A stretch of DNA of 32,000 bases from Candidatus Saccharimonadota bacterium. GTDB taxonomy: Bacteria; Pseudomonadota; Gammaproteobacteria; Enterobacterales; Enterobacteriaceae. The notes under the pieces were generated by a model, which searched no databases, was not told the DNA's origin, and saw only the letters and a list, made by a program, of their open reading frames with translations. The stretch covers positions 570,001 through 602,000 of the forward strand of contig NC_014909.2 in assembly GCF_000185985.2 (NCBI RefSeq), in the 5' to 3' direction. Shown here one piece after another: positions 14,075-21,493 of this stretch; position 1 is the first letter of the stretch, and each line of letters starts with the position of its first letter. Made by a program: the position numbers and the translations under genes.

Positions 14075-14824
14075 ACAGAAAATAAAATATATATACTTTT
14101 ATGAAATAAAAAAATATTTTACTAGAGTGACCCCGATATAACCTTAATAATTCTTTAATTAAAGAATATTACACACTAACCTAGTATGGTATACTAATAA
14201 CATTTCAACTCATCATATGAGTGAATTTCATTCTCTTTACTGTTAGAAATAATTATATAATTAATGCCAATACTGACCTATCCATATAACACCTATATCA
14301 TCATATCCAAACCAAATTTGCTTATACAAACAACGATATATACTAACAACATAATATTATTTATTAAATTGTACTATAATAAACAATTTACGGTATTACA
14401 TATCTAATAATTGCAACGATAACAAGTTTATTAATTTTTTATCTAAGATTAGACAACATTTATATTTGCACATTAGTATACTAATATATATAAAATTACA
14501 ATATGTCAAATATATTAGATACATTTTTCTTTTAAATTAAATATGAATAATTCTATATTTATTAATTAATCAATTCCAAAAACAATAATGTTTCACATGA
14601 AACATAAAATTCTTTACTTTAATATACAATATTCTTTTCTTGTTTTTTAATTCAATTAACTTAGTAAATTATATAAATATATGTTACTTTATGTATAAAT
14701 TATATTTATGACTTGTGTTCATATTACAAATATGAATGTCAGTAATTTAATATACAACGAATACAAGAATAATTAAAATGACTTCAATATTGATTACCTA
14801 TATACAATGGAGTTAATAATCATA

Positions 14825-15667
14825 ATGAATCAGCTTGATATCTTAAAAAAAATTCCCATGATTTCATCAAATACTGAAATTATTGAAGATATTGTATTAT
14901 ATAAAATTCAATACACAATAACTCATCACCTATTACTCAGTGTAAAGTCTCCATTATTCACCATATCTGCTATACTATTTGAAGATAATTTAAATTATAC
15001 CCACAAATTAATACATAATCCAAATAAACAGGTAATTAATGCAAGTCATAAATGCACAGTAAATATTAGATCTAAAATCTTAAAAAAAATTACAGAATGC
15101 ATTTCCTTCCCCAAAATTAATACAACACTTTTCTTAAAAAAACACTTCTCTATACAACAAGCATATAAATTAATTAAAATTTATCAAGAAAAAAATACAA
15201 ATACATCACTAGTGTTAACAAAAATTAAAACTACTTGGAAAAGGATCAAATCAACAAAAAAATTAGAAAAATTTAAGATAAAATATATTGTAACATCGTT
15301 ATTTTTTTTTACTCAGACACATTCATATACTACAAACAATTTATACTTAATATCTCCTTTTATTGTTTATATCGATGATTGGTACAATAAAAATAACTTA
15401 TTAAAAAGACATTACATAAATAACGATCCTAATGTCAAAACACTAAAAAAAAATTATCATTTTTACAAAACGCACTATAATATAATTACTATGGAACCTA
15501 ATCTCCATATATTTCAACAAATTTTAACTACTATATCTGAATATGATTATCTAATTCTTTTTCTAAACTTCCTCAAGGAAATATTGTACAAAAATTTAAA
15601 ATCCGTTGAAGGTCAATTATCTCCATGTAATCTAATAATACTTAATTGCCAAAATCCATTTTCCTAA
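14825..15667 (+). CDS. tal: Transaldolase-derived ORF, highly diverged and 3'-truncated; probably not a canonical transaldolase (pseudoenzyme, repurposed protein or late-stage decaying gene)
   Basis: Sits directly upstream of tkt, as talA-tktB does in E. coli. Collinear with E. coli TalA/TalB: MNQLD/MNELD, IEDI/IESI, VLTKIKTTW/ILIKLASTW, YLISPFIVYIDDWY/FLISPFVGRIYDWY, NNDPNVKT/EEDPGVKS, FLKEIL/LLKEL. The ATG at 14825 matches the TalA start; the ORF-track ATG at 14807 adds 6 aa. Details in findings. Confidence 0.8.
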   Translation: MNQLDILKKIPMISSNTEIIEDIVLYKIQYTITHHLLLSVKSPLFTISAILFEDNLNYTHKLIHNPNKQVINASHKCTVNIRSKILKKITECISFPKINTTLFLKKHFSIQQAYKLIKIYQEKNTNTSLVLTKIKTTWKRIKSTKKLEKFKIKYIVTSLFFFTQTHSYTTNNLYLISPFIVYIDDWYNKNNLLKRHYINNDPNVKTLKKNYHFYKTHYNIITMEPNLHIFQQILTTISEYDYLILFLNFLKEILYKNLKSVEGQLSPCNLIILNCQNPFS

Positions 15668-15781
15668 TCAATTTTTTAGAATATAAAAAATAAAATGGAA
15701 ATTAATAATTTAAAAAAAGGCATCAAAAACTCTTAATAAATCACAATTTATCCAATGAACTATTTATCACAAAACTCTGAT
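15668..15781 (+). pseudogene. Decayed 3' end of the tal gene, filling the tal-tkt spacer
   Basis: The same frame continues past TAA (15665-15667): SIF*NIKNKMEINNLKKGIKNS**ITIYPMNYL. MEINNLKKGIK (15695-15727) aligns without gaps, at the expected offset from FLKEIL, to TalA MAVEKLSEGIR. Further stops occur at 15677, 15734 and 15737. Confidence 0.6.
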
Positions 15782-15810
15782 TATATTATTAACAACACAA
15801 GGAAATAACT

Positions 15811-17811
15811 ATGGAAACACAAACATATAAAACTTTAGCCAATGCTATACGTATACTAAGTATAGATTGTGTGCAACACGCAAATTCCGGACATCCAGGA
15901 GCTCCTATGGGCATGGCAGACATTGCTGAAGTCTTATGGAGGGATTACATGAATCATAATCCAAATAACCCAAATTGGATAAATAGAGATAGATTTATTT
16001 TATCCAACGGACACGCGTCTATGTTATTATATAGCATCTTACATCTTACCGGATACAACTTATCTATAGAGGATTTAAAAAATTTTAGGCAATTACATTC
16101 GAAAACCCCTGGACATCCAGAATATAAACACACAGATGGAGTTGAAATCACTACAGGACCTTTAGGACAAGGTTTAGCTAATGCCGTAGGGTTTGCAATA
16201 GCTGAACGAACATTAGCAAAACAATTTAATCGCCCTTCATTTAACATTATTGATCATTATACTTATGTTTTTGCTGGAGATGGCTGTATGATGGAAGGAA
16301 TTTCTCATGAGGTTTGTTCATTAGCCGGAACCATGCATTTAAATAAATTGATTGTATTTTATGATAGCAATAATATTTCTATTGATGGAAACACTTCAGA
16401 ATGGTTTACCGATAATACTGCGATAAGATTTAAATCTTACGGATGGCATGTAATTGATAATATTGATGGTCATCATAGAAACTCCATTAAAATCGCTATT
16501 GATCAAGCTAGATCAGAATTGAATCGACCATCGTTGTTAATTTTTAAAACCATTATTGCTTTCGGTTCTCCAAATAAAAGCGGAAAAGCTAGCGCACATG
16601 GATCTCCATTGGGAAAAATAGAAGTTTATGAAACTAGACGCGCATTGCTTTGGCAAGAAAAAACAGCATTTTTAATTCCGAAAGAAATATATAATGCTTG
16701 GAATGCTACTCAATTAGGAGAAAAAAAAGAAAATGACTGGAATAAAATATTCTATCAATATCAAATTCATTATCCTAATTTATCTCAAGAACTTAAAAGA
16801 CGTATAAAACATGAATTACCTCAAAATTGGGAAATAGAAATAAAAAAAATTATTGAAAAACTAAATATAAATCCTAAAAATCTCGCTACCCGACAAGCAT
16901 CACAAATTATCATTGAGCATCTTTACAAAAAATTACCAGAACTTTTAGGAGGCTCAGCAGATTTAACCCCTAGTAATCTAACTACTTGTTCTCAATCCAC
17001 TTCTATCATGCACAATCCTGCAGGAAATTATATTCATTATGGTGTTCGAGAATTCGGAATGACTGCTATAGCCAATGGAATATCCAATCACGGAGGATTT
17101 TTACCCTATACTGCAACTTTTCTAACATTTAGTGATTATGCGCGTAATGCTATTCGTATGGCCGCTCTTATGAATACTCATCATATTATGATTTATACTC
17201 ATGACTCTATTGGATTAGGAGAAGATGGGCCGACTCATCAACCTATAGAACAATTATCAAGTTTACGTATCATTCCTAATTTACAAATCTGGCGACCTTG
17301 TGATCAAATTGAAACTGCAATTGCCTGGAAATCAGCAGTTGAATACCAAGGCCCAACTGCTTTAATTTTATCTCGACAAACACTAAAAACACAAGAATAC
17401 ACATCAACACAAATTACTAATATCGCTCGAGGAGGATATATATTAAAAAATTTCCAAGAAGATCTTGATCTAATAATCATTGCTACTGGCTCAGAAATAG
17501 AACTAGCAATACAAACATATTATATATTAACTAAAAAAGGATATAAGATACGAGTTGTCTCTATGCCTTCTACCAACCTTTTTGACAAACAACATATAAA
17601 ATACCAAGAATACGTATTGCCAAAAAAAACATTAAACAAATTAGTTATTGAAGCTGGTAGTGATAATTTTTGGTATAAATATATTGGGTCATACGGAAAA
17701 ATAATTGGCATAAATGAATTTGGAAAATCTGCTCCAGCACATGAACTATTTAATTTTTTTAATTTTACTATAGATTATGTACTACAAAAATCTTACGAAT
17801 TATTAAAATAG
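15811..17811 (+). CDS. tkt: Transketolase
   Basis: 666 aa, strongly conserved against E. coli TktA/TktB along its whole length ([58 protein letters not shown]). AAGGA lies upstream of the ATG. Confidence 0.97.
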
Positions 17812-19283: not shown

Positions 19284-19658
19284 TTAATTAAGAACATTAT
19301 TTAATATAACAGGAGGACATATATTCAGATTATTACTACTTGTAAAATCTGTATCTATCTTTTTTATTGTAATAGTATCAATAGCGGGTATATTATACTC
19401 AGTATACGGATCAGGAAAAATGATACCTAAATTTTTTGGTATTTTAAGTTCATATAAAAAATAATTGTTTTTACGATTCTTCAAATATTGCAATTTATCA
19501 TCTGCATTTATTGCACAGCAATAATTTTTTTTATTCATTTCTTTAGAAACAAGGCATCCTGTTAACAACAGGGCGCAAAAAAATTGCAATATCAACCCTA
19601 TGTATATACAAACAATTCTTTTTTTTATGTATAAATATACATTGGCTATATGTAACAT
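19284..19658 (-). CDS. bamC: Minimal outer-membrane lipoprotein BamC (NlpB) homolog: signal peptide with lipobox plus the N-terminal BamD-binding segment only
   Basis: Starts 14 nt after the dapA stop, mirroring the dapA-bamC operon of E. coli. The signal peptide has KKR, a hydrophobic core and lipobox LLTG|C. Mature part: LYELKIP..GIIFP..EYNIPAI..NLNICPP, versus E. coli BamC LAELHAP.GMILP..DYAIPVT..ALDIRPP. 124 aa versus 344 aa in E. coli. Confidence 0.75.
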   Translation of the reverse strand: MLHIANVYLYIKKRIVCIYIGLILQFFCALLLTGCLVSKEMNKKNYCCAINADDKLQYLKNRKNNYFLYELKIPKNLGIIFPDPYTEYNIPAIDTITIKKIDTDFTSSNNLNICPPVILNNVLN

Positions 19659-20996: not shown

Positions 20997-21493
20997 ATGA
21001 TATTACAACCTGGAATTAAAGCTCCAATTTTTAATAATATACTTGACCAAAATGGAATATTGATTAATTCTTCTTCTTTTTTAGAAAAAAATACTAATAT
21101 ATTTTTATCTAAAAACCATGACATCCAAGATGTACTATTCAAACTTAAAAATTACACGACAAAATGAATATTTTTAACACACTACAGGTAAAAATTGTTG
21201 AAATTAGCTCAGATACACCAAGAAAATTATTAACCTTTTCTAAAAAAAAATATTAAATTTCACACTTTATTATCTGATTCAAAAACACCAAATCTCTAAT
21301 ACATTTTTAGCGCATAAAGAAAAAAATTTATGGGTAAAAATATAACGGTATTCATCGAATTAGTTTTTTAATTAATGAACAAGACATCTTTGAACAAGTA
21401 TTTAAAAAATTTCAACCTAACAATCATATTCAAATAATTTTAAATTATTTACAAAAAATCAACTCATTGTTCACCTTAGTAGTATTAAGATAA
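20997..21493 (+). pseudogene. bcp: bcp pseudogene (thiol peroxidase / peroxiredoxin Bcp): one frameshift plus seven in-frame stops
   Basis: From the ATG at 20997: MILQPGIKAPIFNNILDQNGILINSSSFLEKNTNIF, versus E. coli MNPLKAGDIAPKFSLPDQDGEQVNLTDFQGQRVLVYF. After a frame change near 21090-21100, frame 2 reads HPRCTIQT*KLHDKMN..VKIVEISSDTPRKL..KYNGIHRISFLINEQDIFEQVF..ILNYL. This is gapless against TPGCTVQACGLRDNMD..VDVLGISTDKPEKL..TYDGIHRISFLIDADGKIEHVF..VLNWL. Stops start at 21110, 21119, 21146, 21254, 21275, 21308 and 21335. The position after dapA matches E. coli (dapA, gcvR, bcp). Confidence 0.85.

Follow-up and report, generated by a model that had tools for sequence, protein, structure and literature searches.

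The tal–tkt locus

A 32,000-nucleotide stretch of bacterial DNA (contig NC_014909.2, positions 570,001 to 602,000; hereafter the window) contains, directly upstream of the transketolase gene tkt, an open reading frame (ORF) derived from a class I transaldolase gene (tal). The ORF covers positions 14807-15667 of the + strand (286 codons) and ends with a TAA at 15665-15667. Other tal genes start at the position homologous to the ATG at 14825 (MNQLD), from which the frame runs for 280 codons. At 100% identity the product matches the 'transaldolase' listed at NCBI for Candidatus Blochmannia vafer BVAF, which in the NCBI version comprises the 280 residues from 14825, and the neighbouring Tkt is the B. 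vafer protein. GenBank and RefSeq annotate the ORF as 'transaldolase' or 'transaldolase family protein'.

The homology to class I transaldolases is real but weak. The ORF scores 59.2 bits against Pfam PF00923 (TAL_FSA), above the cut-off of 27. It remains below the curated equivalog or subfamily cut-offs of two NCBIfam models, NF009001 (transaldolase A; 152.3 bits against 439) and TIGR00874 (talAB; 122.6 bits against 396.2), reaching about one third of the required scores. The profile searches confirm the family assignment made in a first-pass annotation of the letters alone, as does the nearly gapless alignment to TalA and TalB described there: structures of Escherichia coli TalB (PDB chains) match the ORF at E = 1e-24 over about 270 residues. 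An exhaustive HMMER search of 1.8 billion representative proteins returned 329 matches at E <= 1e-3, the best non-self match having 38% identity. The protein is a singleton and an extreme outlier of its family. An overlapping gene in another frame or on the other strand was ruled out, as each of the other five frames contains 18-31 stops.

The surroundings of tkt in ten more Blochmannia genomes or assemblies were retrieved through their Tkt homologs. The order cysA-W-T-P, tal, tkt, dapE, dapA, bcp, upp is conserved, and tal lies directly upstream of tkt also in Rahnella, Serratia, Rouxiella, and Pantoea. The ORF occupies the talA position proposed for it earlier and is the talA ortholog. Intact tal genes, encoding 317-323 amino acids (aa), are found in B. 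floridanus, the Polyrhachis turneri symbiont, and three Logan assemblies, one of which is the closest sampled relative of B. vafer by Tkt. In the clade of ocreatus, SNP, C-046, pennsylvanicus, and Camponotus sp., tal is degraded or absent throughout: it is unrecognisable in ocreatus, reduced to a 63-aa trace in SNP, interrupted by a deletion of about 436 bp and frameshifts in C-046, and affected by a 1-bp deletion in the Camponotus sp. symbiont, and it persists as an open 283-codon ORF in B. pennsylvanicus. The decay of tal in B. vafer is independent of that in the pennsylvanicus clade, because B. vafer groups with the lineages of intact tal in the Tkt tree. The B. vafer relic is 37-45% identical to intact Blochmannia Tal, and the B. 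pennsylvanicus relic 29-31%.

An unusually long spacer (0.57-1.28 kb) separates cysP from tal in every Blochmannia locus with cysP, as in window 14075-14806 and in B. pennsylvanicus (L082:2836-4036). In the pennsylvanicus clade these spacers contain islands conserved between species, for example region 203-252 of the B. pennsylvanicus spacer, which is 96% identical to C-046.

At the 3' end, the alignment verifies both the premature TAA at 15665 and the three in-frame stops reported downstream of it, together with the gapless match of the tail to the family. The sequence MEINNLKKGIK (15695-15727) corresponds to the conserved MAV(D/E)KL.EGI of the Tal C-terminus. About 38 C-terminal codons have been cut off, and with them the C-terminal helices of the full-length protein (about 316-323 aa). 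The density of stops in this tail, about 0.1 per codon, is at the equilibrium level. The former 3' end now forms the spacer, so that the gap between tal and tkt measures 143 nt in B. vafer and 13-39 nt in intact Blochmannia loci. A search for intrinsic terminators between the relic and tkt found none. A promoter scan yielded 19 candidates against 22.9 expected in shuffles of this AT-rich DNA, which is no better than chance. The first-pass annotation had called tkt highly conserved, and B. vafer Tkt is indeed full-length in its domains and 74-77% identical to other Blochmannia Tkt. The coordinates of these and other features are collected in Table 1.

Table 1. Features of the tal–tkt region (window positions unless a locus is named)
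Feature	Position	Strand	Remarks
Extension MELIII, six codons	14807..14824	+	Upstream ATG brought in frame by a 5-nt insertion
Shine-Dalgarno sequence of the tal relic, GGAG	14809..14812	+	Upstream of tal in all eight aligned Blochmannia loci, both relics included
tal relic body	14825..15667	+	280 open codons, then premature TAA; matches TAL_FSA, TalA, TalB
Replaced residues (ORF numbering)	N16 14870; H34 14924; K97 15113; I155 15287	+	From the alignment
Replaced residues, continued	Y182 15368; N226 15500; H228 15506	+	From the alignment
Schiff-base Lys (TalB Lys132), K133	15221-15223	+	Codon AAA; retained
Former tal 3' end, now tal-tkt spacer	15668..15810	+	Further in-frame stops at 15677, 15734, 15737
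Shine-Dalgarno sequence of tkt, AGGA	15800..15803	+	7 nt before the ATG, read from the sequence
tkt (transketolase), intact	15811..17811	+	Full-length Pfam Transketolase_N, Transket_pyr, Transketolase_C
bcp pseudogene	21000..21460	+	Neutral comparator outside the tal locus; located by tblastn with Blochmannia Bcp
B. pennsylvanicus 'transaldolase A' relic	L082:4037-4888		283 aa, GTG start, intergenic composition

Active site and protein-level decay

The ORF, read through its stops, was aligned by MAFFT with E. coli TalB, five enterobacterial TalA, and five intact Blochmannia Tal. The five outgroup TalA genes lie directly upstream of tkt and were taken from the matches listed in the Tkt contig scan. 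From the structural and mutagenesis literature on TalB, we take the functional residues to be D17, N35, E96, K132, N154, T156, S176, F178, R181, S226, and R228. Among these, Asp17 and Glu96 are catalytic, together with Asn35 and Asn154, and Arg181, Ser226, and Arg228 bind phosphate. All 11 functional comparators keep all 11 residues. In B. vafer seven of them are replaced (D17N, N35H, E96K, N154I, R181Y, S226N, and R228H), and K132, T156, S176, and F178 are kept. The TalB mutant structures 1i2n-1i2r are among the PDB matches, and several of the seven replaced positions were chosen for mutation in these structures.

Most of the residue changes first read by eye are reproduced by this alignment: D17N, N35H, R181Y, and the change of MGASFR to MEPNLH (S226N, R228H), as well as the retention of Lys132, Thr156, and Ser176, to which Phe178 can be added. 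The loss of Glu96 also stands, but not its replacement by Pro; B. vafer has a one-codon insertion in this region, which gives T95P and E96K. The change N154I is a further loss, absent from the earlier list. A profile alignment with the catalytic Asp, Glu, and Arg in place was not obtained, and D17, E96, and R181 are all replaced.

The ORF is almost certainly not a working transaldolase, judging from its sequence. A functional enzyme that merely evolves fast would agree with the database names, with the retained Schiff-base Lys, and with the open frame. We regard it as highly improbable, since seven residues invariant in all functional comparators are replaced, the score against the transaldolase A model is 152 bits instead of 439, and the C-terminal helices are missing.

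Outside the active site the decay is equally extensive. The 11 functional Tal sequences agree without exception at 86 positions, and at 41 of these (48%) B. vafer has kept the shared residue. As a control, each intact Blochmannia Tal was compared at the positions conserved in the others; four keep 93-95% and the P. turneri symbiont keeps 84%. Where conservation is restricted to Blochmannia, B. vafer keeps 62% of the sites. Lower retention at the universally invariant sites than at the Blochmannia-only sites is the opposite of what residual constraint on the protein predicts. AlphaFold2, run on the ORF with a 6-sequence alignment, gave a predicted local distance difference test score (pLDDT) of 37, which is uninformative, as an intact Buchnera Tal reached only 48.6 with the same alignment.

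The base composition of the relic is close to that of non-coding DNA. Its GC content at codon positions 1/2/3 is 0.27/0.23/0.19, compared with 0.36-0.41/0.28-0.33/0.12-0.20 in intact Blochmannia tal and 0.20/0.17/0.21 in the adjacent intergenic DNA. First-position G has fallen from about 0.22 to 0.11. Where all five intact genes share the same nucleotide, 64% of G, 26% of C, and 15-18% of A/T are changed in B. vafer, and the relic now contains 0.16 C and 0.07 G. The amino-acid sequence of the ORF is drifting under AT-biased mutation.

A very recent relaxation of selection, one of three explanations offered at the outset, is ruled out by this advanced state: 64% of the invariant G and about half of the invariant residues are gone, and the GC content at the first two codon positions is near the intergenic level.

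Stops, frameshifts, and translation signals in two relics

The three forward frames of the 280-codon body contain 0, 28, and 29 stops. We evaluated the absence of stops with a neutral model based on a strand-specific substitution spectrum. For this spectrum, 261 substitutions were used by which B. pennsylvanicus differs from the Camponotus sp. symbiont in the relic and the flanking intergenic DNA. Ancestral tal codons, for which each intact Blochmannia gene served as a proxy, were evolved until the retention of conserved residues equalled that observed. The neutral distance t is expressed in units of about 12% divergence. For B. vafer (t about 2.2), 9-11 stops are expected and none is observed, with a probability of no stop of 0.7-5.6e-5. 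For B. pennsylvanicus (t about 3.7), 13-15 stops are expected, and the probability of no stop is 7e-8 to 9e-7. Independent estimates of t from the loss of invariant nucleotides gave 1.9-3.7, in agreement with these values.

The same conclusion follows from comparisons within the window. The body has 0 stops in 280 codons and the tail 4 in 38 (Fisher p = 1.8e-4). The bcp relic, 44% identical to floridanus Bcp, is as diverged as the tal relic (43-45% identity) and contains at least 8 in-frame stops in about 127 codons and one frameshift (Fisher p = 7.7e-5 against the tal body). The stop density of the bcp relic and the tal tail is about 0.06-0.1 per codon. No bcp is called in B. ocreatus or the P. 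turneri symbiont either. Indels follow the same pattern: all five in the B. vafer body, relative to the intact genes, comprise whole codons, whereas in the comparison of B. pennsylvanicus with the Camponotus sp. symbiont no more than 3 intergenic indels out of 35 are multiples of three. In both relics the first stops occur only in the last 35-40 codons or so. The deficit of stops and frameshifts in the tal relic is significant.

The contrast in stops between body, tail, and bcp on which the first-pass annotation rested is thereby upheld. Its count for bcp was 7 stops in about 155 codons, where we find at least 8 in about 127 and a frameshift, the equal divergence and the abundance of stops holding as described. 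Its chance of about 1e-11 for an open body is overstated by about six orders of magnitude, because it assumed an equilibrium random sequence instead of ancestral codons; the neutral model gives about 1e-5. The core proposal, that the ORF no longer works but is shielded from stops by selection, survives with 7 of 11 functional residues lost and a probability of about 1e-5.

A plain pseudogene, open by chance or through very recent inactivation, has some circumstances in its favour. The gene is dispensable and fully decayed in related lineages, its C-terminus is already gone, the genome has other pseudogenes, and the locus was picked for its oddness, which introduces a selection bias. Such an explanation is nevertheless very unlikely. 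It requires an event of probability near 1e-5 in B. vafer and another of about 1e-7 to 1e-6 in the independent B. pennsylvanicus relic at the same locus, it leaves unexplained why body indels all preserve the frame and why the equally diverged bcp is broken, and the extent of the decay excludes a recent event.

The signals for translation initiation have also persisted. The start codon is retained in both the B. vafer and B. pennsylvanicus relics, as is the Shine-Dalgarno sequence, for which the Polyrhachis turneri symbiont has GAGG in place of GGAG. Neutral DNA of these genomes loses its G quickly, and under the neutral model the probability of keeping GGAG is about 0.11 in B. vafer and about 0.03 in B. 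pennsylvanicus. In B. vafer, a 5-nt insertion lies between GGAG and the ancestral ATG (window 14813-14824) and brings the ATG of ATGGAG, out of frame in intact tal genes, into frame.

The parallel relic provides a test of selection on the amino-acid sequence. It is catalytically dead (D17N, E96K, S176Y, R181L, S226N, R228C) and only 26% identical to the B. vafer relic. Two other annotated proteins, 'transaldolase A' in B. chromaiodes (283 aa) and 'transaldolase family protein' in the C. modoc symbiont (281/282 aa), are likewise dead relics of intergenic composition. We compared B. pennsylvanicus with the Camponotus sp. symbiont, whose Tkt are 95% identical. The ratio of nonsynonymous to synonymous substitution rates (dN/dS) of the relic is 0.91 (bootstrap 95% confidence interval 0.55-1.53), and that of the five neighbouring genes compared is 0.12-0.28. 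The 99 differences in the relic are evenly spread over the codon positions (34/37/28), and its nucleotide divergence is 11.8% versus 13.4% in intergenic DNA. No new stop is found among the 99 substitutions, with 4.7 expected (P = 0.009), and only one frameshifting indel versus about 11 expected from the intergenic density, making such indels about ten times rarer. A dN/dS of 0.91 combined with no new stops and few frameshifts indicates that the amino acids drift freely and that the frame is defended. Sister genomes with frameshifts or stops and a dN/dS near 1 had been named beforehand as the mark of plain pseudogenisation; the ratio is indeed near 1 and several close relatives carry disruptions, yet substitutions in this pair have made no new stop.

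These data also bear on whether the relic is a derived enzyme or pseudoenzyme, as had been suggested: a truncated, dead Tal-like protein with another role, such as binding, scaffolding, or chemistry through Lys132, Thr156, and Ser176. The retained frame, Shine-Dalgarno sequence, and start are compatible with this possibility, as is the survival of the Schiff-base Lys with three neighbouring active-site residues. Branch-wide rates at codon positions 1/2/3 of B. vafer (2.7/1.9/3.7) are somewhat lower at the first two positions, and the confidence interval for the B. pennsylvanicus relic extends down to 0.55. Universally invariant sites are, however, not favoured (48% vs 62%), the composition is almost intergenic, and the Lys codon is AAA, which AT pressure favours. 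In the parallel relic dN/dS is 0.91, and several close relatives carry it in broken form; the 26% identity of the two relics means that no common new sequence is conserved, and the protein has no counterpart among 1.8 billion representatives. We consider a new protein function unlikely, and the analysis gives it no support, given that conserved sites are not preferentially kept and the parallel relic appears neutral.

A proposed link between relic translation and tkt expression

We propose that tal of B. vafer is a dead gene whose frame, start, and Shine-Dalgarno sequence have been kept by selection for translation, which would avoid polarity on tkt; we put the probability of this reading at about 0.5. 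tal is evidently dispensable in the Blochmannia symbiosis. Transketolase alone converts fructose-6-phosphate and glyceraldehyde-3-phosphate into erythrose-4-phosphate and xylulose-5-phosphate, from which Rpe and RpiA then give ribose-5-phosphate. After loss of the Tal enzyme in B. vafer, tkt together with Rpe and RpiA would probably still supply erythrose-4-phosphate and pentose phosphates by this route.

Selection would in this case guard the act of translation rather than the protein, through the Shine-Dalgarno sequence, the start, and the open frame over the first 280 codons or so. The relic would be the promoter-proximal cistron of a tal-tkt operon. After an early stop or frameshift, ribosomes would no longer cover several hundred bases of RNA, rich in C and poor in G, in front of tkt, and the exposed RNA could provoke Rho-dependent termination or rapid messenger RNA decay, as in classical polarity; the rho gene itself lies outside the window. 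The cell would then be starved of essential transketolase. Stops near the 3' end would be tolerated, as the naked stretch before the tkt ribosome-binding site would be short. Kept translation signals and frame, a freely changing peptide, truncation only at the late end, and an essential tkt downstream with no terminator in between fit the avoidance of polarity. We suppose that the relic and tkt share a transcript and that polarity is what drives the selection. Of the explanations first put forward, polarity gives the best fit to the absence of stops, the whole-codon indels, the kept Shine-Dalgarno sequence and start, the late stops, and the parallel dN/dS of about 0.9, and the mechanism itself we infer.

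Several observations weigh against this proposal. In C-046, SNP, and ocreatus, tkt is kept behind a shattered relic, showing that the constraint can be escaped. Within the pennsylvanicus subclade, the 5' third of the ORF is disrupted in Camponotus sp., camponoti, and one modoc strain. The spacing of 12 nt between the Shine-Dalgarno sequence and the ATG at 14825, a result of the 5-nt insertion, is suboptimal. The branch-wide rates would fit a long relaxed, non-zero constraint as well, and no close relative of B. vafer was found in any collection searched, so that amino-acid neutrality in this species is supported by indirect evidence. A further point concerns the block AATTCTCTATAAGAGA, located 60-100 nt upstream of tkt (L082:4900-4945, with matching stretches in L087, L090, and L092). 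It appears conserved across the pennsylvanicus clade, with an identity of 0.75-0.96 versus a background of 0.55-0.9 in a noisy profile, and is not present in B. vafer. This block could be a tkt-proximal promoter, in which case polarity would be weaker in the pennsylvanicus clade, or another signal.

The broken copies are themselves patterned. Those in other modoc, camponoti, and Camponotus sp. genomes encode 155-242 aa, and the disrupted tips all keep the 3'-most codons, about 172-195 of them, open from at or near the same Met, which camponoti, Camponotus sp., and one Logan assembly share. In the Camponotus sp. symbiont, the one disrupted tip read at the DNA level, the frameshift leads to a stop, and 2 nt beyond this stop lies an in-frame ATG (UAAAAAUG) at which ribosomes could re-initiate.

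An alternative in which tkt plays no part is selection against truncated or out-of-frame peptides, through toxicity, ribosome rescue, or the load on proteases and chaperones. It predicts the same deficit of stops and frameshifts together with neutral missense evolution, and endosymbionts are chaperone-limited. It leaves unexplained that loss of the last 40 codons or so is tolerated in both relics and that fragments of 94 N-terminal aa are tolerated in the Camponotus sp. symbiont. Other pseudogenes such as bcp, presumably still transcribed, gather stops freely, and the simplest escape, loss of the Shine-Dalgarno sequence or start, has not occurred. This alternative is in our view doubtful, slightly more so than a new protein function.

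The proposed translated relic can be set against known systems. With class I TalA and TalB it shares the near-gapless homology, the place upstream of tkt, and Lys132, Thr156, Ser176, and Phe178. It differs from them in the replaced and lost residues, in its profile scores, and in a composition and substitution pattern that are those of non-coding DNA. The talA relic of B. pennsylvanicus and B. chromaiodes, together with that of the C. modoc symbiont, is an independent counterpart at the same locus, with about 283 open codons, late stops, and kept Shine-Dalgarno sequence and start. The B. pennsylvanicus copy differs in being older and more decayed, in its GTG start, and in having close relatives, several with disruptions in the 5' third. 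Common pseudogenes of endosymbionts, bcp and queA of B. vafer among them, resemble the relic in loss of function, AT drift, and erosion without large deletions, and bcp departs from it in its stops and frameshift; the genome paper reports only these two genes as pseudogenes and does not discuss tal (PMC3017870). Rho polarity, leader ORFs, and upstream ORFs offer the likeness of selection on ribosome occupancy of the upstream cistron and not on its product, with dN/dS near 1 and the frame kept. The tal 'leader', in contrast to a short dedicated ORF, is an 840-nt dead enzyme gene, and its role is suggested by sequence evolution only.

A decaying endosymbiont gene is ordinary; a frame kept without amino-acid constraint, twice independently at one locus, is not. 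The literature searched contains no mention of tal decay in Blochmannia and nothing relevant on polarity-preserved pseudogenes. We suggest, tentatively, that dead genes may persist for long periods as 'translation spacers' upstream of essential operon genes; tal of B. vafer and of the pennsylvanicus group would then be the first documented examples. If this holds, many 'intact' but wildly divergent ORFs in reduced genomes may lack protein function, and the order and pace at which genes erode would be set by their place in the operon. The 'transaldolase' of B. vafer, B. pennsylvanicus, B. chromaiodes, and the C. modoc symbiont is almost certainly no enzyme, and Tal should be dropped from their pentose-phosphate reconstructions. 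The locus separates selection on the protein from selection on the act of translation, which are usually confounded, and the natural series from intact gene through open dead ORF and broken ORF to nothing could reveal the part that operon context plays in gene erosion in reduced genomes.

Two further regions of the window deserve mention. The first 2.5 kb or so (1-2513) are without an ORF of at least 90 aa and have a GC content down to 0.158, especially at 1001-2000; they may represent a large spacer or what is left of eroded genes. Downstream of dapA, positions 19284-19658 of the - strand hold a 124-aa ORF without a Pfam match. An ORF of 86-122 aa is present at the same place in most other Blochmannia loci, with one weak match to BamC_C (L087), and the window ORF may be a much-shrunken bamC/nlpB.

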